From a virus (taxonomy: Duplodnaviria; Heunggongvirae; Uroviricota; Caudoviricetes), in IMG/VR virus record IMGVR_UViG_2526164631_000023: a DNA stretch of 64,000 nucleotides; one strand, given 5' to 3'. The notes beneath the pieces are model-generated. The model was given only the letters and a program-made list of their open reading frames with translations, had not been told where the DNA came from and ran no database searches. Shown here in pieces: positions 6,557-62,389 of the stretch (the stretch's first letter is position 1; each line of letters opens with the position of its first letter). The translations under genes and the position numbers were made by a program.

Positions 6557-6575
6557 TGTGTTAGAAAACTAAAAT
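6557..6575 (+). promoter_or_regulatory. Operator-like motif copy a (TGTGTTAGAAAACTAAAAT)
   Basis: Member of a dispersed family of asymmetric ~19-bp sites, consensus tGTGTTAGAAA(a/t)(c/t)TAA(a/t)T. Confidence 0.45.
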
Positions 6576-23153: not shown

Positions 23154-26100
23154 TTATGGGTGCTGATAAAACGAACAACATAATGACACTATCCTCTGGT
23201 GTCTCACAGCCGTTGCTTGCTGATGTTCAATATTTCGAACTCTATAGTAGTTCGGCTCTTAACAGAAAACTTAAAAATATTGTTTTGCCGGGCTTTTACT
23301 GTGGATTTGAACCAGTTCCCGGCGCAGGGTTGAGAGTCCGTATAACTTCTGAAAACTCAGAAGGTAAAGGGGCTGCTTCAGTAGATGTAAATAATGTTCA
23401 GATATCCGTTCAGCAAATAGAAGATGTGACTGTCTCGGTAAAGGCTGGGGCTACCAACATTATTGTGCTAGAAGCCAATTTTGAACATGGTGTAAAAACG
23501 ACACAGGTAGAGAGCGCATCTTCTGTCAGTGCTGCAAGAATTTACGCGCGTACGGACAATACTATTGGGCAGAATCAAATTGAATTATGTCGAGTTATCG
23601 TGCCTAACGGCGCAACGGCTGTGACGAAAGAAATGATTGTGCTTAAATACCGGGTTAACCGTGCTGTTGGTGTCGAATTCTCTAATGAAATAAGCAGTAC
23701 AGAAGAAAGAAAAGCGGCTACACCTCTGGCTGTCAAAACTCTCCATGATTTGGTTGATACAAAAGCTCCGCTCGATAGTCCACATCTGTCAGGTACGCCG
23801 ACAGCACCTACGGCCTCACAAGGCACAAATAGCACGCAGATTGCAAATACAGCCTTTGTTAAGGCAGCTATAACTGCACTTATCAACGGTGCACCTGGCA
23901 CACTGGATACGCTGAAAGAAATAGCGGCTGCGATCAATAACGACCCGAATTTCAGCACAACTATCAACAATGCCCTGGCTCTCAAAGCGCCTTTGGCAAG
24001 CCCGGCGTTCACAGGTACGCCGACAGCACCTACGGCCTCACAAGGCACAAATAGCACGCAGATTGCTACGACCGCTTATGTAAGAGCTGCCATATCCGCA
24101 TTGGTTGGTTCATCACCAGAAGCTCTTGATACCCTGAATGAGCTTGCCGCAGCACTTGGTAATGACCCGAACTTTGCGACAACAATGACAAATGCGCTGG
24201 CAGGCAAACAGCCTCTGGATGCAACTTTAACCGCTCTTGCTTCCCTTGCGACTGGTGCAAACAAACTGCCTTATTTCACGGGTAAGGATACGGTAGCTCA
24301 GACTGATTTAACGTCAGTCGGTCGCGATATTCTGGCTAAAACAAGCATACTGGCCGTTATCCAATACCTTGGTTTAAGAGAACTCGGTACCAGCGGTGAA
24401 AAGATCCCCCTGTTAAGCACAGCTAACACATGGAGTGCGCGCCAGACTTTCAACGGCGGGATCACCGGGGCGCTGACAGGGAACGCCGACACCGCGACGA
24501 AATTGAAAACCAAAAGGTCGCTTCAAGTTGACCTCCAAAGTGATAACGCCATCGACTTTGATGGTTCATCAAATGCTCTTCTGGGCATAAAAGGTATTTT
24601 ACCAATTACTCATGGGGGATTAGGTGCATCCAGCGTCTCTGGAGGGCGTACTAATCTTGGATTAGGTGTTGCGGACGTCCCCCAATTTAAGGGTATCAAT
24701 CTTGTTAACTCAACAGACGCTGATTTAGCCGCGTCAGGGATTGTAAGTGGTTATCTGAATAATTCAGCTGGGGTACAGAGGAGTCGTTTCAGAATTTATT
24801 CAGAGATAAGGAGTGGCAACCGCTCATGGCTGACGTTACATCTACAATCTGATACCAACACCAATAAATATGCCGGATTAGACATTGACGGTAACTTTCT
24901 GATTACCGGAGATAGCAAATGCCGAGCATTAGAACCAACTGATGCAGCGTTAACAAGAAAAAATATTGATGTTTACAGCAAAGCCGAAGTAGACCTTAAA
25001 AAAGGGATGAAATTCACCAGAGTCAATGCTCCTTCTGGAGCTGAAGAGGGTAAATTCTATCCTGTAGTCATCAAGAGATCTGCAACGAGCAATGGTGAAC
25101 TTGCTTCTCGGGTTATTATTTCCACTGCGTCGCGCCAAGCTGCACATCGCATGAACAACTGCGAATTCAATGGTTTTGTGATGCCTGCTGGTTGGAGTGA
25201 CAGAGGGCGGTACGCATACGGGATGTTCTGGCAATATCAGGATGCAGAACGGGCGATTCATTCTATTGCGATGAGCAATAAAGACGATGAAGTTAGCTCA
25301 GTTTTTTATATTGAAGGCGGAGCATTTCCAGTATGCGTTCTTGTGGAGGAGGGGCTTTCTGTTGTTGTCCCTACAACGGATTATATTGTTGGACAAACCA
25401 CATACAAATGGGGGGCTACCAACCCTAAAGCTGAATGTATAGCTGCCGACATAATTATTGATTTTAGCAATGGTCGTGGTTTCTATAGCTCTGGAAACCT
25501 CAATGGTAATGCTGCAACAGCAACTAAATTACAGACCGCCAGAACAATCAACGGAGTAACCTTCGATGGCACTACTGATATTTCGTTGACACCAGAGAAC
25601 ATTGGCGCGCTGTCTCTATCCGGAGGCACATTATTAGGAGGTCTGACAGCTCCATTACTTACCACTAAAAGCGATCTTATTTTTAGTAGCCATACAAGCC
25701 GTCATATCCGCTTTACATATACGAAAAATGACGGCACAACACTAACTGATGGGTACATATTTAAAGATGGCGTCGATAACCCTAACAGACGACCAGGCAT
25801 CCGGATAAATTGTGCTGCGCCGAATAAAGAAACCGGCAATGGTACTAATTCAGGTGATTGGATATTCGGTGAAGATGGCATTTTTACCATGCCGGGTGGC
25901 ACTGTTCTTCGGGGAGGAATCAATAGCAATGGCGTGCCGCAAAGTGAGTATAAACATGACATGCTCACGTCAGTTGTTGACGATGCAAAAATGTATCTGC
26001 GACGTTTCCGCTCCAGCACAGGTGCAAGCATATGGCATGAAACAATAGAGAATAATGTTTATCGCTTATGCACAGGAACAACTGACGCTCAGGAAGAGTT

Positions 26101-27475
26101 AGTCTTGAGGACTGGTTCCTATGCGAAATTCGCTGGCGAGATTATTTCCAAATCGGCGAATGGTCTGCGCATTGTCTATGGCAACTATGGATTCTTTATC
26201 CGAAACGATGGTTCAAGCACATACTTCATGTTGACCGATTCGGGTAACAGCCTAGGAACCTATAATAGGTTAAGGCCGCTTATCATTAACAATGCCAATG
26301 GTGCTGTTACGATCGGTAATGGACTCAATGTTACTGGCGGCATCAATGGTAGTTTGAACGGTAATGCTGCAACTGCAACAAAACTGCAAACAGCACGCAC
26401 AATAGGCGGTGTGTCATTCGATGGCTCCGCCAATATCAACCTGCCGGGTGTAAACATTGCTGGTAACCAGAACACAACCGGTAATGCAGCGACAGCGACC
26501 AAGTTGCAGACAGCATGTACTATCAACGGCGTCTCGTTTGATGGTTCTAAAGATATTGAACTTAACCCACGGTCTATAGGCACGATCAACTCCACAACAA
26601 TGTCTTTTAGTGGTGGTGCTGGATGGTTCAAGCTAGCAACTGTAACCATGCCACAGGCCAGTTCCGTGGTTTACATAAGCCTGATTGGTGGTGCAGGGTA
26701 TAACGTTGGCTCCCCGCATCAAGCAGGCATCTCTGAGCTGGTTCTGCGTGCCGGAAATGGAAATCCAAAAGGTATTACTGGTGCATTATGGCGACGGACC
26801 TCGGTTGGATTTACTAATTTTGCATGGGTGAATACATCTGGTGATACCTATGATGTTTATGTTGAAATAGGTAATTACGCCACAGGTGTTAATATTCAGT
26901 GGGATTATACCAGTAACGCCAGCGTAACGATTCATACATCACCAACTTATACAGCGAATAAACCAACAGGCCTGACAGATGGAACTGTATATGTAATTTA
27001 CAGTTCGCACATTAAACCGACTGCTGCTGATGTTGGGGCGTTGTCATTATCTGGAGGTCAATTGAATGGTGCACTGGGCATCGGAACATCCAGTGCTCTT
27101 GGCGGTAACTCGATTGTTTTGGGTGATAATGACACGGGCTTTAAACAAAATGGCGACGGTAATCTGGACGTTTATGCTAATAACGTCCATGTTATGCGCT
27201 TTGTCTCCGGCAGCATTCAAAGTAATAAAACCATAAATATTACAGGGCGTGTTAACCCCTCGGATTACGGTAACTTTGATTCCCGTTATGTGAAAGATGT
27301 TCGCCTGGGTACGCGTGTTGTTCAATTGATGGCGCGTGGTGGTCGTTATGAAAAAGCCGGACACGCAATTACCGGATTAAGAATCATTGGTGAAGTAGAT
27401 GGCGATGATGAAGCCATCTTCAGACCAATACAAAAATACATCAATGGCACATGGTATAACGTCGCACAGGTGTAA
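23150..27475 (+). CDS. Tail fibre protein S: constant N-terminal part fused to the currently expressed variable C-terminal cassette
   Basis: 1441 aa with repeated GNAATATKLQTARTI(N/G)GV(S/T)FDGS motifs and C-terminal ..INGTWYN; shares internal segments with reverse-strand cassette. Confidence 0.8.
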   Translation: MIMGADKTNNIMTLSSGVSQPLLADVQYFELYSSSALNRKLKNIVLPGFYCGFEPVPGAGLRVRITSENSEGKGAASVDVNNVQISVQQIEDVTVSVKAGATNIIVLEANFEHGVKTTQVESASSVSAARIYARTDNTIGQNQIELCRVIVPNGATAVTKEMIVLKYRVNRAVGVEFSNEISSTEERKAATPLAVKTLHDLVDTKAPLDSPHLSGTPTAPTASQGTNSTQIANTAFVKAAITALINGAPGTLDTLKEIAAAINNDPNFSTTINNALALKAPLASPAFTGTPTAPTASQGTNSTQIATTAYVRAAISALVGSSPEALDTLNELAAALGNDPNFATTMTNALAGKQPLDATLTALASLATGANKLPYFTGKDTVAQTDLTSVGRDILAKTSILAVIQYLGLRELGTSGEKIPLLSTANTWSARQTFNGGITGALTGNADTATKLKTKRSLQVDLQSDNAIDFDGSSNALLGIKGILPITHGGLGASSVSGGRTNLGLGVADVPQFKGINLVNSTDADLAASGIVSGYLNNSAGVQRSRFRIYSEIRSGNRSWLTLHLQSDTNTNKYAGLDIDGNFLITGDSKCRALEPTDAALTRKNIDVYSKAEVDLKKGMKFTRVNAPSGAEEGKFYPVVIKRSATSNGELASRVIISTASRQAAHRMNNCEFNGFVMPAGWSDRGRYAYGMFWQYQDAERAIHSIAMSNKDDEVSSVFYIEGGAFPVCVLVEEGLSVVVPTTDYIVGQTTYKWGATNPKAECIAADIIIDFSNGRGFYSSGNLNGNAATATKLQTARTINGVTFDGTTDISLTPENIGALSLSGGTLLGGLTAPLLTTKSDLIFSSHTSRHIRFTYTKNDGTTLTDGYIFKDGVDNPNRRPGIRINCAAPNKETGNGTNSGDWIFGEDGIFTMPGGTVLRGGINSNGVPQSEYKHDMLTSVVDDAKMYLRRFRSSTGASIWHETIENNVYRLCTGTTDAQEELVLRTGSYAKFAGEIISKSANGLRIVYGNYGFFIRNDGSSTYFMLTDSGNSLGTYNRLRPLIINNANGAVTIGNGLNVTGGINGSLNGNAATATKLQTARTIGGVSFDGSANINLPGVNIAGNQNTTGNAATATKLQTACTINGVSFDGSKDIELNPRSIGTINSTTMSFSGGAGWFKLATVTMPQASSVVYISLIGGAGYNVGSPHQAGISELVLRAGNGNPKGITGALWRRTSVGFTNFAWVNTSGDTYDVYVEIGNYATGVNIQWDYTSNASVTIHTSPTYTANKPTGLTDGTVYVIYSSHIKPTAADVGALSLSGGQLNGALGIGTSSALGGNSIVLGDNDTGFKQNGDGNLDVYANNVHVMRFVSGSIQSNKTINITGRVNPSDYGNFDSRYVKDVRLGTRVVQLMARGGRYEKAGHAITGLRIIGEVDGDDEAIFRPIQKYINGTWYNVAQV
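24357..24382. other. gix/cix-like 26-bp recombinase crossover site (site A), in frame inside the fibre gene
   Basis: TTATCCAATACC TT GGTTTAAGAGAA matches remembered Gin-site TTATCCAAAACCTCGGTTTACAGGAA at ~20/26; encodes VIQYLGLRE. Confidence 0.5.
26132..26365. repeat. 234-bp inverted repeat, copy 1 (inside S), ~98% identical to reverse complement of 29167-29400
   Basis: Both copies encode EIISKSANGLRIVYGNYGFFIRNDGSSTYFMLTDSGNSLGTYNRLRPLIINNANGAVTIGNGLNVTGGINGSLNGNA. Confidence 0.8.
26196..26221. other. Candidate crossover site B inside the inverted repeat
   Basis: TTATCCGAAACG AT GGTTCAAGCACA; left half fits Hin-family half-site; inverted copy at 29310-29335. Confidence 0.3.
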
Positions 27476-27478
27476 ATT

Positions 27479-28006
27479 ATGCAGCATTTAAAAAATATTA
27501 AGTCAGGAAATCCAAAAACAAAAGAGCAATATCAGCTAACAAAGAATTTTGATGTTATCTGGTTATATACAGAAGACGGTAAAAACTGGTATGAGGAAGT
27601 AAATAACTTTCAGGACGACACCATAAAGATTGTTTACGATGAAAATAATATTATTGTCGCCATCACCAAAGATGCATCCACGCTTAACCCTGAAGGTTTT
27701 AGCGTCGTTGAGGTTCCCGATATTACAGCCAACCGCCGCGCTGATGATTCAGGAAAGTGGATGTTTAAGGATGGAGCTGTAGTTAAACGGATTTATACGG
27801 CAGACGAGCAACAACAACAGGCCGAATCACAAAAGGCCGCATTGCTTTCCGAAGCTGAATCAGTCATCCAACCGCTGGAACGCGCTGTCAGGCTGAATAT
27901 GGCAACAGACGAGGAACGCACACGACTGGAAGCATGGGAACGCTACAGTGTTCTGGTCAGCCGTGCGGATACGGCAAATCCTGAATGGCCACAAAAACCA
28001 GAGTAA
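27479..28006 (+). CDS. Tail fibre assembly chaperone (U/Tfa) for the current cassette
   Basis: 175 aa; N-terminal half ~70% identical to reverse-strand paralog 28035..28568; starts 4 nt after S stop. Confidence 0.8.
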
Positions 28007-28010
28007 AAAT

Positions 28011-28030
28011 TAAGGCCCGATAGCGGGCCT
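28011..28030. terminator. Bidirectional hairpin between convergent U and U' genes
   Basis: aaggcccgatagcgggcctt: 7-bp stem aggcccg/cgggcct. Confidence 0.45.
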
Positions 28031-28034
28031 TCTC

Positions 28035-28568
28035 TCATTCTGGTTGTTCGGGAAACGTTACTGGCAGGCCGGAAGTGTCTGTAGATTCGACTTTCTGCGC
28101 ATAGAGCATCCACTCGGTTAATTTTTGTTTATTCTCGTCGGAAATGATGCCCAGCCGTAGCTGTGAGTCCCATAGCTGGGTTTTATCCCTGACAAGTTGC
28201 AACAGGCTTTGCTTTTCATTTTCCGCTTGTTGCCTCTGCTCTTCCTCGGTATAAGTTCGCTTTATCACTACGCCATCTTTGAACATCCATTTCCCCGAAA
28301 TATCAGCCCGGCGATTTGCTGTAATATCAGGTAATTCAACGACGCTTGCACCCTCTGGATTAATTGCTGAAACATCCTTTTCAATACAAATAATAACGCC
28401 GTTATGGTCATAGACCATTTTCAAAGTGTCTGGCTGGAAATTCTTTTGTTCCTCATACCAGTTTTTTCCATCATCTGAATAAAGCCATTTGATGTTAAAT
28501 TGCTTTGTTAGCTGGTATTGCTCTTTTGTTTTAGGGTTGCCAGCAGTAATGTTTTTTAAGTGCATCAT
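28035..28568 (-). CDS. Alternative tail fibre assembly chaperone (U')
   Basis: 177 aa paralog of U on the opposite strand, directly downstream of the alternative fibre cassette. Confidence 0.8.
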   Translation of the reverse strand: MMHLKNITAGNPKTKEQYQLTKQFNIKWLYSDDGKNWYEEQKNFQPDTLKMVYDHNGVIICIEKDVSAINPEGASVVELPDITANRRADISGKWMFKDGVVIKRTYTEEEQRQQAENEKQSLLQLVRDKTQLWDSQLRLGIISDENKQKLTEWMLYAQKVESTDTSGLPVTFPEQPE

Positions 28569-28570
28569 CG

Positions 28571-30241
28571 TTAAATACTCCCCGCGTTATACCACGTCCC
28601 ATTAATGCAATACTGAATTGGCCTTGCCTGAGTTGTATCAATTAATTCATCACGGTTTCCGTTAACTGAACCCGTAACGACATAACCTGACCTGTCAGAC
28701 CAGCCGGGACCATTCCATGTCTGAACAGATGACAGACCGCCAAGGCGAATACCTGTAATAAACCTTGAGTTACATTCTGCCTGCGTGTATGCACCAACAT
28801 CTCCCGCAGAGGGTTTGCGGGTCGTGGTGTAAAACTCTGACCAGTCAGCCTCAAATCCATAACCATCACGCGCTGAACGATAAAAGATACCGCCGTTTTT
28901 ATAATTCACGCGGAACTGTACAGCAGGGCAACTCCCCGCATTCATATTAAAGTGGAGGATTAATGTCGATGCGCCACCAATGTTTGCGTTATAGACCCCG
29001 CTATTCCAGTTCCAGCCAACAGCTTTATCATTTGCGACCCTGCTTCCTGTTTGCCCTAGAGCAAACGCACCTACATGACTTGCTTTTAATGTGATATCGG
29101 AGGAACCATCAAAAGCCACGCCACTTATTTTTCTGGCAGTTTGTAACTTTGTAGCCGTAGATGCATTACCGTTCAAACTACCATTGATGCCGCCAGTAAC
29201 ATTGAGTCCATTACCGATCGTAACAGCACCATTGGCATTGTTAATGATAAGCGGCCTTAACCTATTATAGGTTCCTAGGCTGTTACCCGAATCGGTCAAC
29301 ATGAAGTATGTGCTTGAACCATCGTTTCGGATAAAGAATCCATAGTTGCCATAGACAATACGAAGACCATTCGCCGATTTGGAAATAATCTCGCCAGCAG
29401 CAGTTAATCCGCCAGTTAACGCTCCTCCAGATAGTGGTAAAGCTCCGACATCAGCCGCAGTAGGCTTGTTTTTAGTGTTATACGCTCTGCGCCATCCTGG
29501 TGAATAACTTGTGCCATTAGACACATAGATAAATTCAGCATTAGTGAGTGCGCCAGATACACTTGTCATCGTTGCCGTTGTTATTCGAATGGTGTAATTG
29601 TTGGTATTATTGCTGAATACTTCTATCACAGCACCCGCCAGTGGAATAATGCCACAACCAGTTTCACTGTCTGGTATGGATGCACTATTTGCATACGCCC
29701 AAGCACAACGAGCGAACCATGCTTTCGTATTGAATGCCCCGTTATTTTGCAACAAAGTAACTAACTGGGCTGTCGTTATTGACTCACCGTTATTACCTGT
29801 TGTTAACCAACCAGTAGGAGATGCCGGGCAACCAATATTTGCTGGTGACAGTGAAATATTCGCAGAACCGTCAAATGAAACCCCATTAATGGTACGTGCT
29901 GTTTGTAATGTCGTGGCAGACGCCGCATTTCCTGTTGTGTTCTGGTTGCCCGTTGTATTTACGCCCGGTATGGAGTCTTTCGATGTATAGACCTGTGCCC
30001 ACTCAGACCATGCCGCACCTGTGTAATCTCTTCGGGAGCGAATGAAAACTGGCGCATGTGCACCGCTCGTACCACTCCAGCCAATAAGCAACTCGCCCTC
30101 ACCAGCAGCACTCGCACCTTTCATGTGCAATACGTTGCCATACGTGGTCGGGTAGCTATTGTTGTACGCCTCGTACATTTGAATGCCAGCAGCGCCTTGA
30201 GTAGAGCCGCTTAACGCCGTAACTCGGCCACGAGATACCAA
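28571..30241 (-). CDS. Alternative tail fibre C-terminal cassette (Sv'): promoterless, no credible start
   Basis: Track start is TTG without SD and frame closes 15 codons upstream; fibre repeats (GNQNTTGNAASATTLQTARTINGVSFDGS) and C-terminal ..INGTWYNAGSI. Confidence 0.7.
   Translation of the reverse strand: MVSRGRVTALSGSTQGAAGIQMYEAYNNSYPTTYGNVLHMKGASAAGEGELLIGWSGTSGAHAPVFIRSRRDYTGAAWSEWAQVYTSKDSIPGVNTTGNQNTTGNAASATTLQTARTINGVSFDGSANISLSPANIGCPASPTGWLTTGNNGESITTAQLVTLLQNNGAFNTKAWFARCAWAYANSASIPDSETGCGIIPLAGAVIEVFSNNTNNYTIRITTATMTSVSGALTNAEFIYVSNGTSYSPGWRRAYNTKNKPTAADVGALPLSGGALTGGLTAAGEIISKSANGLRIVYGNYGFFIRNDGSSTYFMLTDSGNSLGTYNRLRPLIINNANGAVTIGNGLNVTGGINGSLNGNASTATKLQTARKISGVAFDGSSDITLKASHVGAFALGQTGSRVANDKAVGWNWNSGVYNANIGGASTLILHFNMNAGSCPAVQFRVNYKNGGIFYRSARDGYGFEADWSEFYTTTRKPSAGDVGAYTQAECNSRFITGIRLGGLSSVQTWNGPGWSDRSGYVVTGSVNGNRDELIDTTQARPIQYCINGTWYNAGSI
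29167..29400. repeat. 234-bp inverted repeat, copy 2 (inside Sv')
   Basis: Reverse complement nearly identical to 26132-26365. Confidence 0.8.
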
Positions 30242-30265
30242 TGTATTAATGTTGGTTTAAGAGAA
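30240..30265. other. Second gix/cix-like site (site C), same orientation as site A
   Basis: AATGTATTAATG TT GGTTTAAGAGAA; right half and next ~130 bp identical to site A flank. Confidence 0.4.
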
Positions 30266-30568
30266 CTCGGTACCAGCGGTGAAAAGATCCCCCTGTTGAG
30301 TACGGCTAACACATGGAGTGCACGCCAGACTTTCAACGGCGGGATCACCGGGGCGCTGACAGGGAATGCCGACACCGCGACGAAATTGAAAACAGCACGC
30401 ACGATTGGCGGTGTGGTATTTGATGGCTCGGCCAATATCAACCTTCCAGGTGTAAATACAACAGGTAACCAGAACACCACCGGGAATGCTGCTACCGCGA
30501 CAAAACTTGCGACGGCAAGAAACATCAACGGTGTTAAGTTTGATGGCTCAGGCGATATCAAGGTTTAG
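30252..30568 (+). pseudogene. Third, short tail-fibre 3' cassette (S'') lacking a start codon; possible remnant
   Basis: First 142 bp ~96% identical to 24369-24510; encodes ..GLRELGTSGEKIPLLSTANTWSARQTFNGGITGALTGNADTATKLKTARTIGG..GDIKV; stop overlaps invertase stop. Confidence 0.5.
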
Positions 30569-32612: not shown

Positions 32613-34541
32613 CAATCCTTTACGAATTAATATTCAGTCTACTTTTGCTGATACGATCCCCGGCTATATGCCAAGTCGCTGGTCTTCAGAAGAATTAAGC
32701 GAAGATGACCTGATTTTTGAGGCGGCGACCTTAGAAGATATTGAGCTTGCCTATATGGGCAATGAAATTCTGGTTGTGTCTGACGAAGCTATGTTTGAGT
32801 CCATAACTACAACCAGAATTCGGTTAGCTCAAACAATGCGAGCTTTCGTCCGTGCGCTGAATCGTGGCCTGAATGGTACGAATATTATGGCAGGGACTGA
32901 TGAAGCCGGGACCGATGAAAATGGACGTAATTGTATTGGTGGTGCGATTATCGGTCGTGTACGTCGGGTAGCTAATATCCCTGTTTTGACCGCGCAGATA
33001 CCGCTTACTGACGGGCAGAGTACAAGCATAATTTTCCACTCTCCAACAGCTGACGGGGCAAAAATAAAGAGTAACGACGAGCTTGTTGCATTTCAGTTTT
33101 TACTTAATAAGCGTAACGTAACTCACGTTGTCGCCCCGATTGGTGGGAGAGATGTTTCTTTAAGCCAGGTATGCCAGGCGCTATCTAATTTGATTGAGCG
33201 TAACAGCGAAAAATTTAAGAAGGCAAAAGAGCGCCAGGACAAAATGAAGGCAGATATTGAGAGTTATCTCAATGAAGCAGATAAACTGGCAGAAGAACGG
33301 TCAATAATGATTGATCAGGTGGACGTTGCGCAACGTGGGCTGACTGAAAAGCGTGCTGCTCTTACGGAGATGCAAAAAAACTTGATGCCCAGAAAGCCAT
33401 CAACGAGGAATTACAAGCAAAACGCGATAAATTGTTGTCTGCTAAAGGTGAAAAAACGAAAGAACGAGCGTTTAGCGACCAGCTGCGACATGTAAAACAT
33501 AATCTTGCCATTGACGGAAAAACAGTGCTGGATAATGGCGCTGAAGTTAATTATGTCACGTCCGGCAGTGACAATTTCGTTACGATAGTAGCACCTGAAG
33601 GTAAATTCAGTATTGATGCCAGTGCTGTCAAAGGAGGCAGTTTGGCAGATGCTGCAACCAAATTACTTAAAGCCTACCGAGAGCATAACGCAGATAAATA
33701 TAAAGTTGATGTGTTACCAGGCCAGCAGGAAGACCCCGAACCACCACAGACAGACCCCGAGACGAACCCAGTATCACAACCAGAGAGCCAGGATGTAGGT
33801 AAATACCACTATGCACTTCAATCTCGCCCGGCTGGTGTTGGTGCTGTGCCGGATGGAAATAAAGCCGTGCTTGATCGTCCTGACCAGGCTGATCAGTATT
33901 ACGAATATGCTCGTCACGGTATCATTACGTATGACCGTAAACTGACAGATGAAGAAGTCAGCCAGTACGAGTTGCTCTATCTTCCTGATGAAGATGAGCT
34001 GAAAGATTTTGCAGGCCAATTGGTTGTGTCCAGCATGTCGAAACATATTGATGGCTATGTAGACCTGTTTGGCAGTGACCTGAAAACATTCAAGGCGCAA
34101 GTGAAAATTCTTTTCCGCAAAGCGTTTCCAAACGTGGCGTATCCACTTGGTGATGGGGAGAACCTTTTCATTATGGACGTATATAACGCCCTTCAAAATC
34201 ATTCAAACGAAGTAACGCCAGAGCCTGAATTAGCACCTGTAGTTGAGCCAGAATCACACCCACAAACAGCACCAGAGCAACAGCCAACGCCGGAAGACGC
34301 TGAAGAAGCGGCAACTGAAGCTGATCAGGAAGCAGATAAAGCACTGGAGTACCTAAAATCCGTCCCGGTGCAGTTTACATCTCGCGATCTGACGGTAATC
34401 AGTGCCGAACTTGACCATGTGCAGGAAGCTGCAAACGCTCTTATCAGTGCTGGTCGATACGACGAGAACGAATCAACGGTTGGCGCAGCAGTTGACTACC
34501 TGATCAACATTCTGGCTGAAATTCAGCAGGGAGGTGCTTAA
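32604..34541 (+). pseudogene. darA-like virion antirestriction/head gene split by +1/-2 frameshift in an A7 tract (33374-33380)
   Basis: ORFs 32566..33495 and 33432..34541 overlap in different frames; one extra A gives a continuous ~645-aa protein (..TEMQKKLDAQKAINEELQAKRDKLLSAKGEK..), size close to P1 DarA as remembered. Confidence 0.5.
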
Positions 34542-39164: not shown

Positions 39165-39184
39165 AAGTTAAATTTCTAACATAG
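39165..39184 (-). promoter_or_regulatory. Operator-like motif copy g (reverse: CTATGTTAGAAATTTAACTT)
   Basis: Matches dispersed operator consensus. Confidence 0.4.
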
Positions 39185-39269
39185 TGTATTTATATACACT
39201 GTTGATCCTGGTGGATGGGATCGAGTAGGATCGCGGTCACTGCTCCGGTAGCGACTGCCAAAAAAGCAA

Positions 39270-39292: not shown

Positions 39293-39354
39293 GGGTGTAT
39301 AAATCCACTGCCATAGATTTATACGGTAGATAGATTTTTTCACGGAACTATCTG

Positions 39355-39843
39355 GTGAGTATTTTAAATTCAGTTTCAGTAACTTTCAACACTTCTGAGT
39401 ATAAAAACAACACTGAATACCACAAAAAAATCAAAGGTCATCAGTTGAGTTTTTTTGCTCGTCATAGCGGTCTTCTTTCCCCTTCACATAGCGCCATTAT
39501 TGCCGAGTTCGCCAACCTGGCAGGGTCTACCGATGAATACATGATCCGTCGCTCATATGCTGATATGTCCGAGATTACAGGACGCAGTATTTCTACTGTG
39601 CGCCGGGCATTTGCTGAAGCGACGAAGTGCGGAATGCTTGTTAAGCAACATCAGGTAGCGAATAACAATGCCCAGGTGTGTAACGTATATCGGTTTACGA
39701 CACAATTTCTCCACTTCATTCATGTAGCAATGGAGATAGGGGGTAAGCAGGGCATCAAATTTGCCAACGCCACAAAACTGGTTAAGCAGTTGATTTCAAA
39801 GGTTCGTTATTTTTTGAAACTGGGACCCCCCTGTTCAAATTGA
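39355..39843 (+). CDS. Helix-turn-helix DNA-binding protein (162 aa)
   Basis: MSEITGRSISTVRRAFAEATKCGML resembles an HTH. Confidence 0.4.
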   Translation: MSILNSVSVTFNTSEYKNNTEYHKKIKGHQLSFFARHSGLLSPSHSAIIAEFANLAGSTDEYMIRRSYADMSEITGRSISTVRRAFAEATKCGMLVKQHQVANNNAQVCNVYRFTTQFLHFIHVAMEIGGKQGIKFANATKLVKQLISKVRYFLKLGPPCSN

Positions 39844-40316
39844 ACAAGTCCCCCCATGTTCAAAATGAACAGCCAATAGAAAATAAGAGTCACTCTATAG
39901 CCAAAAGAAGAGAAAGATCATGCGCGGTTCAGCCAAAGGCTTCACCAGCAGATAGTTCTCAAACGGCTAACGTGGTGCTGGATAAAAAACCAGTAATCAG
40001 GGAAGAACATACCAACCACTGCCTGGCGGCGGCAAAAGCGAGAGCTGCAAAGCGTCGTTCAGACGAGGGGCACGCAAAACGGCAGGCTCTGTATCGTACC
40101 GCTGAAAAGCTGGCAAAAAAATTTGCATGGATACGTAGTGCCGCTACCGCAGTGAATAAGCCTAAACAATCCAGTGCCCTGGATTTCTCAATGGATTATT
40201 CTGGCTCCCAGGGGTGTGCAACCATTGGTGAAGCCTTTGACCTGATGAAACAGCGTGGCTATCGGTCTGAATTTGACCGTGAGGATTGGTCAATCCCGGC
40301 TGGCTTTAGGGGATGA
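39840..40316 (+). CDS. Hypothetical basic protein (158 aa)
   Basis: ORF overlapping previous stop. Confidence 0.3.
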   Translation: MNKSPHVQNEQPIENKSHSIAKRRERSCAVQPKASPADSSQTANVVLDKKPVIREEHTNHCLAAAKARAAKRRSDEGHAKRQALYRTAEKLAKKFAWIRSAATAVNKPKQSSALDFSMDYSGSQGCATIGEAFDLMKQRGYRSEFDREDWSIPAGFRG

Positions 40317-40368
40317 CCTGTGCGTCTACAAAACATCCCAATGATCGGAAAATGCTCGCTCAATAATT

Positions 40369-40387
40369 TGTGTTAGAAAATTAATTT
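40369..40387 (+). promoter_or_regulatory. Operator-like motif copy b (TGTGTTAGAAAATTAATTT)
   Basis: Heads a ~400-bp non-coding leader upstream of the small ORF and Rha-like gene. Confidence 0.45.
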
Positions 40388-40731
40388 GATGTTTCTAAAT
40401 CGGAATGTATGATCTGCATCATCGACTGAAGTCATCCATTGCTGAAATTTTTAGTTGATCTTCCATGTTTTCAGGCTTATATTCATGTCGTCGTAGCAAA
40501 TTCTGCGACCGGGTTTAGCAGCCTGAATACGAATGCGGACAACCGCAGATATCCGATATTGCGGTATTTTTGTGTCCGTAAAACCACGTTACGCCCGAAT
40601 TATGGTGGGGCGTGATGGGGAGGCTTCGGCCTGCTGGTTTCATTCGTGCCAGTCTGCTAACCCCGTCACGTCCTGCCACCCGTTTAGCAGCGGGTGCGCA
40701 GGTTGTTAAACCTACGAATGAGGCCGTAACT

Positions 40732-40956
40732 ATGGTTAATGCCAATCCTTGCTCGCGCCCGGAATTTATCTGGCGTTTCCACTCCCTGCAAAAACACTGC
40801 GATCACTTCGCAATTGCCGCAACTGAAAAAGAAGCCCGTTCTCTGATCCCTGATCAACATGGCGTCCTGACTGGCCGTTTCTCTACTTCATCACAACCAA
40901 ACACTAATCCTTGGTATCGCAATATTACCAATCCCGGAATTGCGGAGGCACACTGA
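40732..40956 (+). CDS. Small ORF (~74 aa) whose stop overlaps the start of the Rha-family gene (P1 icd-like arrangement)
   Basis: ATG at 40732 with SD gagg; TGATG overlap at 40954-40958. Confidence 0.3.
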   Translation: MVNANPCSRPEFIWRFHSLQKHCDHFAIAATEKEARSLIPDQHGVLTGRFSTSSQPNTNPWYRNITNPGIAEAH

Positions 40957-41663
40957 TGGATATCTGCATTCTTGAAAAGCCATCAATGACCAGCATTGAG
41001 ATCGCGGAGCTGGTGGGAAAACGTCATGACAATGTGAAGCGTACCATTGAAACATTAGCCGAATCCGGCGTTATTGTTCGTCCTCAAATTGAGGATGAAC
41101 CAAAAATAGATGTAATGGGGCGTTCTCGATTAATTCAGGTGTTCCGATTTAGCGACGAGCAAGGCAAACGAGACAGTATCATTGTAGTCGCACAGCTTTG
41201 TCCTGAGTTTACTGCCCGGCTGGTGGACCGCTGGCGCGAACTGGAAGAACAAGCACGCCAGCCGTTGACCGAAATAGAGATGATCGCCGCAATGGCTGCA
41301 AATGCAGTTCAGCAGCAAAAGCGGCTTCATGTTGTTGAGTCAAAGGTTAGCCAGGTGGTAGAAACCGTCGAGCAAATCAAGAAGGGCAACATGCCGGAAG
41401 GTTACATTGGCTACCGCCAGCTGGCGGCAAAATGCGGCCTGACCGAAGCCAAATGTCGCAACCTGGTTAACGCTTACCGGATTCCCACCGATACACATGA
41501 GTTTTTAACTCCAGAGGGGGTATTGTCGCGTCGTTCCATCGTGGCCTTATCTCCCTTCATGAATGCTTTTAACCGGATGATGTCGGAGGCTGAACACCGA
41601 GGAAAACGCTGGTATCACCCCAAAATGGGGCAATTCCAGGTGATCGGTTGGGGAGGTGAGTGA
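40956..41663 (+). CDS. Rha-family phage regulatory protein / antirepressor-like
   Basis: N-terminal MTSIEIAELVGKRHDNVKRTIETL typical of Rha domain; ATG at 40956 with SD ggagg. Confidence 0.6.
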   Translation: MDICILEKPSMTSIEIAELVGKRHDNVKRTIETLAESGVIVRPQIEDEPKIDVMGRSRLIQVFRFSDEQGKRDSIIVVAQLCPEFTARLVDRWRELEEQARQPLTEIEMIAAMAANAVQQQKRLHVVESKVSQVVETVEQIKKGNMPEGYIGYRQLAAKCGLTEAKCRNLVNAYRIPTDTHEFLTPEGVLSRRSIVALSPFMNAFNRMMSEAEHRGKRWYHPKMGQFQVIGWGGE

Positions 41664-41860
41664 TGGACATCATGCAGGCGGTAAAAAAAATCAGGGAAGG
41701 ACATGCTGAAGTGTGCCGCCGTAAAGCATGGAGTGTTGGTGTATGGGCCTGGCCTGATAATTACTCTACTACCGGATGGTTTTGTATTAATGGACTCCAG
41801 ATCCGGGAAGTTGATTTATCGACGGCTGATATAGTCGGTAATGATTGGATCGTGACTTGA
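41660..41860 (+). CDS. Small hypothetical protein (66 aa)
   Basis: ORF overlapping previous stop. Confidence 0.25.
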   Translation: MMDIMQAVKKIREGHAEVCRRKAWSVGVWAWPDNYSTTGWFCINGLQIREVDLSTADIVGNDWIVT

Positions 41861-41892
41861 AGCGTGATGCCCCGGCCTGGCCGGGGCTTTTT

Positions 41893-42378
41893 TCATGCCT
41901 CATTAGTTGAGGTTGCTGCGTCTCCGACTGGTAACAGAGCGGTATTGCGTGGTTCGCCAGCAGGCCAGCGATAGCCAGACACTCTTGATGTTGGGAATGC
42001 GCGAATATTAACCGCATCCCCCTGGTTCCCACCCAGGACAAGCAGATCGCCATTGGCGCGGCGTCCGACAACGAAGCCTACGTGCCCACCGCCTACGCGG
42101 GTAAATACAACGATACATCCGTATGCCGGTGTATCTAATTTCTCGCCCCAATCCAGATAGGATTTTGCCGACTCAAATCTTGTTGAGCGGATGCCTACAC
42201 GTTCCAGCATTGCACCGACAAATGCTGCGCACCACGGCGTTTCATCGTCTTTAATTCCGCCGCGCTTGATGTCGCGCCAGAACTGAACGATTTCAGGGTT
42301 GTGTTTAGCGCCTTTTATTTCAGTCAGGCCAATGTGCTTACGGGCTTCAATTAGCCAGCGAGGTTCAATGTTTGCCAT
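41893..42378 (-). CDS. CHAP/NlpC-P60-like Cys-His peptidase domain protein
   Basis: ETPWCAAFV (Cys) and GGHVGFVV (His) spacing typical of CHAP-type hydrolases; divergent from the DarB-like gene. Confidence 0.45.
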   Translation of the reverse strand: MANIEPRWLIEARKHIGLTEIKGAKHNPEIVQFWRDIKRGGIKDDETPWCAAFVGAMLERVGIRSTRFESAKSYLDWGEKLDTPAYGCIVVFTRVGGGHVGFVVGRRANGDLLVLGGNQGDAVNIRAFPTSRVSGYRWPAGEPRNTALLPVGDAATSTNEA

Positions 42379-42453
42379 ATTTTTCTCCCGGTCATGGGTT
42401 AATAAGTAGGCAAACTATGGGGAGTATGTGATTTTGACGGTAGTATCGTCCCC

Positions 42454-51315: not shown

Positions 51316-51333
51316 ATGTTAGAAAACTAATTT
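51316..51333 (+). promoter_or_regulatory. Operator-like motif copy d (ATGTTAGAAAACTAATTT)
   Basis: Immediately upstream of gene at 51340. Confidence 0.4.
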
Positions 51334-52564: not shown

Positions 52565-52582
52565 GTGTTAGAAATCTAAAAT
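52565..52582 (+). promoter_or_regulatory. Operator-like motif copy e (GTGTTAGAAATCTAAAAT)
   Basis: Start of the non-coding region upstream of the tRNA cluster. Confidence 0.4.
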
Positions 52583-53798: not shown

Positions 53799-53874
53799 GA
53801 TGGTGTAGCTCAGTAGGATAGAGCAGCAGCCTTCTAAGCTGTCGGTAGGTGGTTCGAATCCACCCACCATCGCC
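53799..53874 (+). tRNA. tRNA-Arg (anticodon TCT)
   Basis: Hand-folded cloverleaf: acceptor gatggtg/caccatc, T-arm ggtggTTCGAATccacc, anticodon loop cTTCTAa, 3' CCA encoded. Confidence 0.65.
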
Positions 53875-53879
53875 AATTT

Positions 53880-53967
53880 AGGGGAGTTAGTCCGTAGGGG
53901 TAGCGGGGTAGACTGTAAATCTACTGTCATTGCGACTCGGGTGGTTCGACTCCATCACTCCCCACCA
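53880..53967 (+). tRNA. tRNA-Tyr (anticodon GTA), long variable arm
   Basis: Acceptor ggggagt/actcccc, anticodon stem-loop gtaga-cTGTAaa-tctac as in E. coli tRNA-Tyr, T-loop TTCGACT, CCA encoded; D-arm irregular. Confidence 0.55.
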
Positions 53968-53971
53968 AATT

Positions 53972-54047
53972 GCCGGTTTAGCTCAGTTGGTAGAGCAGTC
54001 GCTTTGTAAGCGAATGGTCAGCGGTTCGATCCCGTTAACCGGCACCA
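53972..54047 (+). tRNA. tRNA-Thr (anticodon TGT)
   Basis: Acceptor gccggtt/aaccggc, D-arm gctcAGTTGGTAgagc, anticodon loop tTTGTaa, T-loop TTCGATC, CCA. Confidence 0.65.
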
Positions 54048-54501
54048 ACACAACAGGTAAGAGCATTTGTAGAGTTCGACTCTCTACCGTGGGCTTTTTC
54101 CCGCGATGCGAGCCATAAATGCTCTTACCGTTGTGATGAAGTGCAGCTCTTTGAAGCAACCAGAAGATAAGCATCTGGCTTCACAACATAAACCGCAGGA
54201 ACGACCAATAAACGGTAGTCCGTATGGAGAACACCCCGTTGAGGAAGAGGTCTGGCCGGAACCGTAACCGGCACTACAACGTTGAGAACACTGGCGTAAC
54301 GGGGTCATATCCCAATCTACGAATAAATGTTGCGTTGCAGCGTGACAACCAGTGTTCTCAACATTGTGGTGAATGCGCAGGCTGATGCGCGAAAGACATT
54401 GCAGCTATTGCGGAAAAGAGCTGTTCGGCGGGGCAATTAAACGCCCGTGAGAGTCTGAAATAACCGCAAGCCGGAGATCAGCACCGGTCGCCACAATAAC
54501 G

Positions 54502-54588
54502 GGAGAGTAGGGAGCATGGTGCTCAAGCGGTCTTGAAAACCGTCCCATTGCGCAAGCGATGATGGTTCGATTCCATTACTCTCCGCCA
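54502..54588 (+). tRNA. tRNA-Ser (anticodon TGA), long variable arm
   Basis: Acceptor ggagagt/actctcc, anticodon stem-loop gcggt-cTTGAaaa-accgt (as in E. coli serT), T-loop TTCGATT, CCA. Confidence 0.55.
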
Positions 54589-54879
54589 GTGCAACGTTAA
54601 GAGTATTTGGCTAATTAAGCGAATGCCGGAAGCAGAACCGGATCACCAAATGCGTACAGGCGTCATCGCCGCCCAGCCAGCCAAGTGCTCTTACCATTGC
54701 GGTGAATGCGGCTAAGCGCACGCGGAACAGTTAAAACAGTAAAGGTGGTCTTTTTACTGGCGTAACGAGAATCCATAAGTGATCCGGCGTTAATTGTTAA
54801 CTGGTTAACGTCACCGGGAGGCACCCGGCACCGCAACCTAACAGCAATGGCGTTTTGTCTTAAAAGGTGGCTGCAAGTG

Positions 54880-55008
54880 ATGGATTTTTGGGCGTTTGCC
54901 GATAAAAACCCGGAGTGGACATTATTGTTTCTGCTGGTGGTTGCATACGGGGTAGAGCAAGCGGCAAAAGCCTTACGCGGTTCTGGCAAAAAGCGTAAGC
55001 GTAATTAA
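54880..55008 (+). CDS. Candidate small hydrophobic peptide (42 aa) between tRNA-Ser and tRNA-Ile
   Basis: SD aaggtgg 9 nt upstream of ATG; MDFWAFADKNPEWTLLFLLVVAYGVEQAAKALRGSGKKRKRN. Confidence 0.25.
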   Translation: MDFWAFADKNPEWTLLFLLVVAYGVEQAAKALRGSGKKRKRN

Positions 55009-55017
55009 CAGTAATCT

Positions 55018-55093
55018 GGCCCTTTAGCTCAGTGGTTAGAGCGGGCGACTCATAATCGCACGGTCACCGGTTCAAGTCCGGTAGGGGCCACCA
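55018..55093 (+). tRNA. tRNA-Ile2 type (anticodon CAT, ileX-like)
   Basis: ggccctttagctcagtggttagagc..gactCATAAtcgc..ggttcaagtcc..aggggccacca is near-identical in layout to E. coli ileX as remembered. Confidence 0.7.
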
Positions 55094-56513: not shown

Positions 56514-56620
56514 TGTTAGGTATTTAATATTAATTTTCTAATATAATCATCTTTTTACCAGTCTATACAGTTTTAACATTCTCATTATCATCCCCTCGGT
56601 CATTTCCTGCCGGGGGATTA

Positions 56621-60960: not shown

Positions 60961-60980
60961 ATTTAGTTTTCTAACATAAA
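60961..60980 (-). promoter_or_regulatory. Operator-like motif copy h (reverse: TTTATGTTAGAAAACTAAAT)
   Basis: 13 bp upstream of the repressor-position gene start. Confidence 0.45.
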
Positions 60981-62371: not shown

Positions 62372-62389
62372 TTAAATTTCTAACACATC
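62372..62389 (-). promoter_or_regulatory. Operator-like motif copy i (reverse: GATGTGTTAGAAATTTAA)
   Basis: Immediately downstream of recombinase stop. Confidence 0.4.

Follow-up and report, generated by a model that had tools for sequence, protein, structure and literature searches.

Here we show that, as judged by homology, the untranslated leader ahead of icd in an E. coli plasmid prophage of the D6-like group is part of an immI module like that of P1 and P7, including a c4-type antisense RNA. The immI switch of the window (the whole 64,000-nt stretch of DNA analysed, 99.99% identical to E. coli plasmid NZ_CP066033) is real and ordinary, and is set apart from those of P1, P7, and D6 by its recognition sequences. 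We put at roughly 90% the probability that we have here an immI operon, carried by a D6-like plasmid prophage, that works as immI does in P1 and P7; the switch is probably functional. This account draws on sequence homology, RNA family membership, fold, complementarity, and covariation.

Antisense control by c4 has been a textbook example since 1990, and P1-like and D6-like phage-plasmids commonly carry resistance genes in E. coli and Salmonella. Because the system is long known and has already been reported from D6-like plasmid prophages, the module matters little as a discovery. It accounts for 415 nt between repL and icd that had seemed "empty", in a plasmid whose RefSeq record leaves the c4 RNA unannotated, and its recognition alleles offer a simple sequence-based predictor of immI heteroimmunity among P1- and D6-like phage-plasmids.

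Over 3101 nt covering repL, icd, and ant, the window is 95.6% identical to phage D6, with which it shares the gene order repL, c4 leader, icd, Rha/Roi-type ant, orf17, peptidoglycan hydrolase, and darB. D6 and D6-like prophages (e.g. pYU39_89; PMC6799933) form one element family with the window; their ImmI has been described as holding c4, icd, and antirepressor homologues, and a second c4/icd region exists (PMC6799933). Compared with D6, both recognition alleles of the window differ and ant is just 86% identical. As a separate observation, repL, next to the module, has a 1-nt deletion in the window.

The P1 and P7 records annotate c4, a1, b1, a2, b2, and icd, and the parts of the module were assigned by homology with annotated P1 (Table 1). 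Across 40470-40843, identity to P1, P7, and relatives in their c4-icd region is 86-93%; it is 86-88% to P1/P7 over the P51b-like promoter, a1b1, c4, a2, b2, and the first ~38 icd codons. The window has in common with P1/P7 immI (Oc4/Op51, P51a/b, a1b1, c4, a2b2, icd, ant1/2) its layout, spacing, and c4 fold, the position of b2 on the icd Shine-Dalgarno sequence, and the overlap of icd with the next gene. It differs in that the stretch upstream of P51b is non-homologous and holds another operator motif, Icd diverges towards its C-terminus, the gene under control is of Rha/Roi type and unrelated to Ant1/2, and repL lies upstream instead of downstream, without kilA or sim. A preliminary description made from the nucleotide sequence had proposed an ImmI-like module of c4 type, which is borne out by the Rfam C4 and c4-a1b1 matches, the P1/P7 identity, the Icd homology, the overlap of icd with an antirepressor-family gene, and the covarying pairs.

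Table 1. Features of the immI locus and of the presumed repressor gene, in window coordinates.
Feature	Position	Strand	Remarks
D6-type operator-like motif TGTTAGAAAATTAA	40371-40384	+	extended match 40362-40387
Upstream sigma-70-like promoter	40386-40413	+	TTGATG/16 nt spacer/TATGAT; promoter scan; directly adjoins operator motif
P51b (P1c4)-like promoter	40455-40483	+	-35 TTGATC 40455-40460, 17 nt spacer, -10 TATATT 40478-40483; promoter scan
IsrK/SeqA-like leader element with upstream targets	40490-40571	+	Rfam c4-a1b1 and isrK models; architecture
Hairpins of IsrK-like element	40490-40509; 40510-40525	+	a1 in loop of second
a1 target UUAGCAG	40515-40521	+	hairpin loop
b1 target ACGAAUG	40529-40535	+	single-stranded
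GC-rich hairpin, then U-run	40542-40565; 40567-40571	+	terminator-like
Outer clamp of leader element	40534-40541; 40573-40580	+	the two segments pair
c4 antisense RNA, 77 nt	40604-40680	+	length and both ends predicted from annotated P1 c4
b' UCAUUCGU	40640-40647	+	in c4, loop of hairpin 2
a' CUGCUAA	40654-40660	+	in c4, single-stranded junction
a2 target UUAGCAG	40684-40690	+	icd leader; homologous to annotated P1 a2; 7 bp with a'
b2 target ACGAAUGA	40714-40721	+	to 40723 with Shine-Dalgarno; homologous to annotated P1 b2; 8 bp with b'
icd, 74-aa Icd-like cell-division inhibitor	40732-40956	+	ATG 40732, TGA 40956
Rha/Roi-type putative antirepressor, 235 aa	40956-41663	+	GGAGG 7 nt upstream of start
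Third operon gene, 65 aa, D6 orf17-like	41663-41860	+	TGATG overlap again; PHROG 7385, function unknown
D6-type C1 repressor gene	59911-60948	-	99.4% identity to D6 C1; presumed trans-acting partner of operator motif

The Rfam C4 model (RF01695) matches 40598-40683 on the + strand over its full length (1-87) with 71.9 bits, against a gathering score of 45. The 77 nt are those of P1 c4, both ends included, except for a', b', and one stem position. Structure prediction, proposed as a check in the preliminary description, gives a c4 fold of -46.2 kcal/mol (z = -5.4) in which b' and a' are unpaired, and the c4 helices are 100% paired in 51 sequences. By analogy with P1, the 77-nt RNA would be processed from a longer transcript, with a 5' end made by RNase P, and would repress icd and ant; RNase P makes the c4 5' end in P1 according to work cited in PMC2190699. 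The predicted c4 falls inside the interval 40390-40700, from which a small processed RNA had been anticipated.

Its two unpaired segments, a' and b', are complementary to a2 and b2 in the icd leader, and b2, which ends at 40721, overlaps the icd Shine-Dalgarno GAGG (40720-40723) ahead of the ATG at 40732, as in P1/P7. TTAGCAG occurs twice in the entire 64 kb, both times in the leader, which also has two copies of ACGAATG, one each at b1 and b2; the complementarity of cattcgt and acgaatg is far beyond chance. All strings named in the preliminary description are present in the sequence, with the coordinates of the leader blocks shifted by 1-5 nt: cattcgt, which represents the true b'/b2 recognition pairing, lies at 40641-40647 and not 40640-40646, and the target acgaatgaggccg lies at 40714-40726 and not 40719-40731. 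The second true recognition pair, a'/a2, had been overlooked, as had the duplicate targets a1/b1 upstream of c4. RNAcofold (MFE) of c4 with its target returned no intermolecular pairs (ddG 0), a null that is expected for loop-loop contacts and lends the pairing no support. A possible cis helix joining a2 (40682-40691) and GUUGUUAAAC (40702-40711) reaches 96.6% pairing and accommodates either a allele via G.U; its covariation is not above that of shuffles (132/500).

Following the mechanism known from P1 (P1 annotation; PMC8198154), the constitutive P51b-like promoter would transcribe through the leader, as would a second, upstream promoter that is probably under D6-type C1 via the adjacent operator motif. 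The 77-nt c4 would then be cut out of the leader transcript, exposing b' in the loop of a hairpin and a' in an unpaired junction, and these would pair with b2 and a2 just 5' of icd. Since b2 overlaps the icd Shine-Dalgarno sequence, icd would not be translated, and the overlapping Rha/Roi-type gene, which by translational coupling would depend on icd translation, would stay off, keeping the prophage repressed. The a1/b1 sites, lying in an IsrK/SeqA-like element with a terminator-like end, probably titrate c4 or modulate its amount, and the recognition sequences would set immunity specificity.

The leader extends from the repL stop (40316) to 40731, which agrees with the preliminary description of a leader of ~400 nt without a credible ORF: it measures ~415 nt, and its ORFs are all short, with starts and stops that vary among 52 related leaders. 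Upstream of c4, the full Rfam c4-a1b1 model (RF03163) matches 40477-40529 with 52.2 bits against a gathering score of 46.7. The full isrK model (RF01394) aligns at 40490-40571 with 46.5 bits (E 8e-9), which is below the gathering score of 50, and the likeness of the element to isrK is therefore a resemblance and not family membership. As duplicate targets of the P1/P7 kind, the a1/a' and b1/b' pairs are 100% paired with 8 compensatory pairs. The layout of hairpin, U-run, and clamp recurs in six module types with differing stem sequences, and a single-sequence fold of 40490-40576 (the putative short leader RNA) gave a structure different from that of the family.

The same layout is found in the IsrK/STnc1160/orf45-anrP locus of Salmonella Gifsy-1, where a promoter is followed by a self-terminated sRNA complementary to a downstream processed RNA, and then by a small ORF that shares an AUGA overlap with an antirepressor-like gene (PMC4825925); the small ORF is not Icd, and IsrK supplied in trans was shown experimentally to activate orf45-anrP translation (PMC4825925). 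The immunity system of phage P4 is likewise similar, in that a processed RNA from an untranslated leader pairs with sites up- and downstream (as described in PMC4825925). The outcome in P4 is premature transcription termination of replication genes, whereas in the window the downstream site overlaps the ribosome binding site, as it does in P1.

An alternative reading is that c4 acts mainly like the P4 CI RNA, pairing with a1/b1 and a2/b2 to cause premature termination, for example at 40542-40571, and not by blocking icd translation. We consider this unlikely. IsrK has been described as a structural homologue of P4 SeqA, and CI RNA terminates by pairing with seqA and seqC (PMC4825925); the leader matches the isrK model along its full length, terminator hairpin and U-run included, with the architecture kept across module types. 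However, this match stays under the gathering score and the single-sequence fold departs from the family structure, and the overlap of b2 with the icd Shine-Dalgarno sequence is exactly that of P1, for which the annotation records that icd-ant translation is repressed. Furthermore, c4 lies downstream of the hairpin, so that read-through is needed for any c4 to be made. A termination route could also run alongside the translational block.

Covariation among related loci argues for c4 pairing with both target sets. Of 117 loci parsed, 116 have an a' that is perfectly complementary to both a1 and a2 and a b' that matches b1 and b2 equally well; the exception is a contig (L044) whose b2 does not match its b'. 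Across 51 distinct leaders, the pairs b'-b2, a'-a2, b'-b1, and a'-a1 are 100% paired with 6, 2, 6, and 2 compensatory positions, respectively, while partners slid by 1-3 columns as a control pair in 27-47% of cells only. Differences between the window and D6 amount to 15/42 nt in the six recognition sites versus 10/206 nt elsewhere (p = 2e-7).

The 117 loci hold two a and six b alleles, joined in 11 combinations, and the combination of the window occurs in 12 of them (window included), on D6-type and P1-type backbones. The b allele reads ACGAAUG in the window, GUUAGUG in P1, GAUUGUG in P7, and ACUUACG in D6; the a allele of the window, UUAGCAG, is that of P7 and not that of P1, and D6 has UUGACAG. 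Cognate 8-nt duplexes reach approximately -8.4 to -8.9 kcal/mol, as against -3.4 kcal/mol or weaker for the window allele with those of P1, P7, or D6 in either direction. Given that its b allele differs from all three, the element is predicted to be heteroimmune to P1, P7, and D6 at immI.

Two linked readings, to which we jointly give somewhat worse than even odds, would extend this account. The first is that immI may carry a combinatorial barcode of 2 a and at least 6 b alleles, each present in triplicate (c4, a1b1, a2b2) and shuffled between P1- and D6-like backbones; if so, it would decide which co-resident or superinfecting phage-plasmids cross-repress. The second is that the a1b1 leader may be an IsrK-like small RNA that ends at the 40542-40571 hairpin and U-run and acts as a decoy for c4, which would make immI a three-RNA circuit of a kind common to the Gifsy-1 IsrK and P4 CI/seqA systems. 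To our knowledge, no translation-activating activity such as that of IsrK is known for P1-type a1b1. The literature searched, which did not include the D6 and P1 genome papers, yielded neither a list of these alleles nor a description of the terminator.

The preliminary description had further paired the target with a second leader block, cggcct, so that the 13-nt acgaatgaggccg would be bound by cattcgt (b' loop) together with cggcct (hairpin 1 loop/3' strand) in a duplex across the Shine-Dalgarno sequence. The block lies at 40627-40632, not 40624-40629, and its 6-nt complementarity to aggccg exists (-11.8 kcal/mol for the duplex alone), yet it falls in an invariant, paired hairpin of c4, whose 4-bp stem joins 40620-40623 to 40628-40631 and closes a UUCG loop. 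The two c4 segments are split by the 8-nt 5' strand of hairpin 2 although the target is contiguous, and acgaatgaggccg can instead pair contiguously with c4 40635-40647 through 10 Watson-Crick and 3 G.U pairs (-19.2 kcal/mol). An Icd profile search found 78 proteins, all enterobacterial, and a first scan of their loci gave mostly close relatives; a scan with the Icd of the second module added four paralogous C4/icd module types, which serve as a qualitative test of the hairpin 1 block, being too few for statistics. In these four, the sequence after b2 (GGCUGCC or GGCAGCC) resembles the 5' strand of the module's own hairpin 1, so that 4-5 of its 5 positions can pair with the 3' strand. In a distant relative (L064), by contrast, hairpin 1 is identical and the target reads GGAGCGUCAUU, without a complement, and the P1 annotation gives a and b sites only. 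Because CGGCCT occurs 19 times in the window, is paired within a c4 stem, and is invariant in 51 P1-type leaders and thus offers no covariation, we find no support for it as a recognition element and regard two-segment pairing as improbable.

That the module is an inactive remnant, conserved through recent acquisition and not through function, we consider very improbable. The deletion in neighbouring repL and a public record that does not annotate the c4 RNA would fit such a view; against it, complementarity is kept throughout the six recognition sites, neither promoter is damaged, the Shine-Dalgarno sequence is intact, as are icd, ant, and the ORF after them, loci on both types of backbone share this allele combination, and substitutions relative to D6 are concentrated in recognition sites and compensated. 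The original reading of c4, in which the leader codes for a small repressor protein, can practically be discarded, for although a 58-codon ATG ORF (40533-40709) spans c4 and the old P1 GenBank record X15639 annotates c4 as a CDS, the 52 leaders have ATG, GTG, or no start at all and reach a first stop at codon 15, 27, 37, 54, or 58, or never, leader conservation tracks RNA pairing and not codons, and c4 is an antisense RNA in the P1 genome annotation and in Citron & Schuster 1990, as cited in PMC8198154.

In the immI operon as we read it, the leader is followed by icd, whose product shows 62% identity to P1 Icd over 61 aa, matches PHROG 1426 (E 3e-39), and is named 'host cell division inhibitor Icd-like protein' in RefSeq. 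The stop of icd overlaps the start of the next gene (ATGA) within TGATG at 40954-40958; the 74-codon ORF and this overlap had both been described exactly. The next product had been called a Rha, antirepressor-like protein, in agreement with its match to Pfam Phage_pRha (residues 11-98) and to the broad PHROG 63 'anti-repressor Ant' (E 3e-46). It is 86% identical to D6 orf18, and a BLASTP comparison with P1 Ant1 found no significant similarity (E 0.38). Its antirepressor role is putative, being deduced solely from position, and is unproven because it has no Ant1/2 homology and its N-terminal domain resembles Roi, a DNA-binding protein.

In the alignment with P1, the P51b-like promoter matches the annotated P1c4 (TTGACC/TATAGT) position by position; it lies, as in P1/P7, upstream of a1b1. 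Its predicted transcription start is at ~40490, the position at which the isrK model starts. The 40386-40413 promoter lies in a stretch that is not alignable with P1, and by position only it would be the counterpart of the C1-controlled P2c4/P51a; in P1, Oc4 overlaps the -35 of P2c4 (P1 annotation), whereas in the window the operator motif abuts the upstream promoter.

The operator-like element reported in the preliminary description as copy b is real: TGTTAGAAAATTAA occurs in 8 copies in the window, where 0.07 are expected, and the match at 40362-40387 is repeated in inverted orientation at 39165-39190, upstream of repL. This motif is found 358-360 nt upstream of the icd ATG in 21/21 D6-type loci, while P1-type loci have the P1 C1 operator in the equivalent place, at -329 to -334. 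The P1 C1 operator consensus ATTGCTCTAATAAATTT has no match in the window with up to 3 mismatches allowed, so that C1 control here would depend on a new, putative motif; a P1-like stretch at 40351-40372, AATGCTCGCTCAATAATTTGTG, was dropped as an operator candidate, since it occurs once in the window. The D6-type C1 repressor, distantly related to P1 C1 (21% identity over 240 aa, E 2e-8), is presumed to bind the D6-type motif. One copy of the motif lies directly upstream of the C1 gene itself (60963-60976), and together the copies outline a candidate regulon of this repressor.

The stretch carries a c4-icd module of the immI type of phages P1 and P7. Overall, the window matches E. coli FDAARGOS_1059 plasmid NZ_CP066033 at 99.99% identity, while 39300-42400 is 95.6% identical to phage D6, with which it shares gene order (repL, gap, icd, "anti-repressor", orf17, peptidoglycan hydrolase, darB). 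P1, P7, and many P1-like elements share the module core (40470-40843) at 86-93% identity in their c4-icd region. Two Rfam families match above their gathering scores: C4 antisense RNA at 40598-40683 (71.9 bits against 45), bearing out the c4-type RNA proposed in the preliminary description, and the target element c4-a1b1 at 40477-40529 (52.2 bits against 46.7). The RefSeq annotation of NZ_CP066033 includes icd and a "Rha family transcriptional regulator", with no RNA annotated.

Parts of the leader were placed by aligning the window with D6, P1, and P7 and transferring the P1 annotation. As first described, the leader holds no credible ORF: only short ORFs occur between the repL stop (40316) and 40731, their starts and stops not being conserved among 52 related leaders. 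It is followed by an ORF of 74 codons (ATG 40732 to TGA 40956) whose stop overlaps the next ATG (TGATG, 40954-40958); the third gene (41663-41860) again starts within a TGATG overlap. Structure prediction, suggested earlier as a check, gives c4 a fold of -46.2 kcal/mol (z = -5.4) with a long closing stem and two inner hairpins. Both recognition segments lie outside the stems, b' (UCAUUCGU, 40640-40647) within the loop of hairpin 2 and a' (CUGCUAA, 40654-40660) within the single-stranded junction.

Leader features and copies of the repeated motif in the window
Feature	Position	Basis or location
P51b-like promoter	TTGATC 40455-40460, TATATT 40478-40483	P1 annotation transfer
a1 (TTAGCAG)	40515-40521	P1 annotation transfer
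b1 (ACGAATG)	40529-40535	P1 annotation transfer
c4	40604-40680	P1 annotation transfer
a2	40684-40690	P1 annotation transfer
b2 (ACGAATGA)	40714-40721	P1 annotation transfer
GAGG	40720-40723	
icd ATG	40732	
Motif copies	6559-6572, 51317-51330, 52566-52579, 62372-62385	
Motif copy	39168-39181	upstream of repL
Motif copy	40371-40384	before c4-icd leader
Motif copy	56530-56543	upstream of lpa-like gene
Motif copy	60963-60976	upstream of c1-like gene

Exact matches to the invariant c4 core occur in at least 120 viral contigs and in three genomes, and all six sites could be parsed at 117 loci among the matches listed. At 116 of these 117, a' is exactly complementary to a1 and a2, and b' to b1 and b2; among the matches listed, two a alleles (TTAGCAG, TTGACAG) and six b alleles (GATTGTG, ACTTACG, GTTAGTG, ACGAATG, GTACATG, ACTTGTG) occur in 11 combinations. 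Across 51 distinct leaders, 6/8 pairs of b'-b2 and 2/7 of a'-a2 have changed on both sides with 100% of cells paired, b'-b1 and a'-a1 follow the same pattern, and shifting the partners by 1-3 columns lowers pairing to 27-47%. The window combines a P7-type a allele with b allele ACGAATG, which differs from the b alleles of P1, P7, and D6. This combination is found at 12 of the 117 loci (window included) among the matches listed, the downstream gene being Rha-type in half and P1 Ant1-type in half. Differences between the window and D6 leaders fall disproportionately in recognition sites (15/42 nt vs 10/206 nt elsewhere, p = 2e-7). Cognate 8-nt duplexes come to about -8.4 to -8.9 kcal/mol, whereas pairing the window allele with P1, P7, or D6 alleles, in either direction, yields -3.4 kcal/mol or weaker.

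The sole b2 exception among the 117 loci of the matches listed is L044, a 4.9 kb contig (IMGVR_UViG_2565956613_000015) in which b2 (GTTAGTG) fails to match the b' (CATTCGT) and b1 (ACGAATG) of the same locus; the contig may be an assembly chimera, or recombination may have produced a locus that would be expected to evade its own c4. The a2 region (40682-40691) can also pair in cis with GUUGUUAAAC (40702-40711), just upstream of b2; AG and GA, from the two a alleles, can each bind an invariant UU by A-U and G.U pairs, preserving the helix. Across 51 sequences, 96.6% of this helix is paired, but its covariation is no greater than in shuffles.

The preliminary description had two c4 blocks, cggcct and cattcgt, pairing with one target, acgaatgaggccg. 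All three sequences exist, at 40627-40632, 40641-40647, and 40714-40726, respectively, although the positions first assigned to them were off. The cattcgt block corresponds to the covarying b'-b2 pairing. That cggcct is a second segment pairing with AGGCCG directly after b2 is unsupported, rather than disproved. The two are complementary, and some complementarity also survives in four paralogous module types, which have a different hairpin 1 but keep GGCUGCC or GGCAGCC after b2. However, cggcct belongs to hairpin 1 (4-bp stem, UUCG cap), taking up its 3' strand plus two loop bases, and covariation cannot speak for it because it never varies among P1-type leaders. The two c4 blocks are 8 nt apart, whereas the target is contiguous, and the target 13-mer can instead pair contiguously with c4 40635-40647 (10 Watson-Crick and 3 G.U pairs, -19.2 kcal/mol), an arrangement possible only if hairpin 2 opened. 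The distant relative L064 has an identical hairpin 1, yet its post-b2 sequence is GGAGCGUCAUU; in the related locus L106 it is GGAGCCGCUAA.

Upstream of c4, the full-length isrK model aligns to 40490-40571 (46.5 bits, E 8e-9; below the cut-off of 50), spanning two 5' hairpins, a linker, a GC-rich hairpin, and a U-run. The second 5' hairpin has a1 in its loop, and the linker contains b1. The GC-rich hairpin (40542-40565), U-run (40567-40571), and outer clamp (40534-40541/40573-40580) recur in six module types with differing stem sequences. Gifsy-1 IsrK is a short RNA with partial terminator read-through into a small ORF overlapping an antirepressor-like gene; it shares complementarity with STnc1160, a processed downstream RNA, and is a structural homologue of P4 SeqA (PMC4825925). 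On the strength of the model match, the conserved architecture, and this description, the P1-type a1b1 region looks like an IsrK/SeqA equivalent, which would serve as a decoy for c4 or in read-through control.

The P1 operator consensus was not found in the window, but the motif TGTTAGAAA[AT][TC]TAA occurs eight times (0.07 expected), including one copy just upstream of a pmgS-like gene. The copy at 40371 adjoins the -35 of a second promoter (TTGATG 40386, TATGAT 40408), mirroring P1, where Oc4 overlaps the -35 of P2c4. The motif lies ~359 nt upstream of icd in 21/21 D6-type loci, and the P1 operator ~330 nt upstream in 51/51 P1-type loci. The C1 encoded in the window (59911-60948, minus strand) shares 99.4% identity with D6 C1 and only 21% with P1 C1 (E 2e-8), a divergence that fits a changed operator. 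As putative operators, the eight copies outline a candidate regulon for the D6-type C1 repressor.

Over 61 residues, Icd shares 62% identity with its P1 counterpart. The 40956-41663 gene (Phage_pRha domain; PHROG 63 "anti-repressor Ant") encodes a product with a Roi-like N-terminus and 86% identity to D6 orf18; BLASTP shows no relationship to P1 Ant1 (E 0.38). The c4 precursor is given as an RNase P substrate (Hartmann et al. 1995, as cited in PMC2190699). In P1, the c4-icd-ant operon, which encodes the cell-division inhibitor Icd and the C1-binding protein Ant, is under repression by C1, with c4 RNA also needed to shut ant off fully (PMC8198154). The P1 record labels b2 and a2 as sites for "repression of icd ant translation" and calls icd "apparently required for expression of ant". 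Biere, Citron and Schuster (1992) reportedly found that Rho terminates transcription before ant when icd translation is blocked. Judged by sequence, all prerequisites of the P1 mechanism are present in the window; the expression steps and antirepressor activity of the Rha-type protein are presumed.

The immI c4-icd system is already known, and a D6-like plasmid has been reported to have two ImmI-related regions, with c4, icd, and an antirepressor (PMC6799933). What may be new detail is the D6-type operator motif, the catalogue of alleles, and the IsrK-like terminator element of P1-type leaders; none of the three was found in the literature searched.

Outside the window, NZ_CP066033 carries a second, paralogous module at ~93.0-94.7 kb (L128 43000-44700, minus strand), comprising isrK (62.5 bits) and C4 (76.7 bits) matches, an Icd-like gene, a Rha/KilA-type gene, and recognition sequences particular to it (a = UUGGAAC, b = GCAAAAGG). 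Upstream there is also a third C4-like match, a weak one (40.2 bits), and related modules in two P1-like contigs (L246, L288) sit behind P1-type C1 operators.

In the window, repL (39355-40316) is broken into two ORFs (39355-39843, 39840-40316) by a T6 run at 39810-39815 that is T7 in D6 and NZ_CP066033; either the lytic replication gene is frameshifted, or the homopolymer was misread in sequencing. Two 21-nt direct repeats within repL, 39826-39846 (CCCCCCTGTTCAAATTGAACA) and 39851-39871 (CCCCCATGTTCAAAATGAACA), each with a palindrome, may be part of a lytic origin, like oriL in P1. The IS100 (istA/istB) insertion in the darA-like head gene of NZ_CP066033 is absent from the window (~34008-34012), and the invertible tail-fibre segment (24359-30561) is arranged differently. 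Five tRNA genes (Arg-TCT, Tyr-GTA, Thr-TGT, Ser-TGA, Met-CAT) cluster at 53799-55093, against three tRNAs annotated in the matching part of the D6 record.
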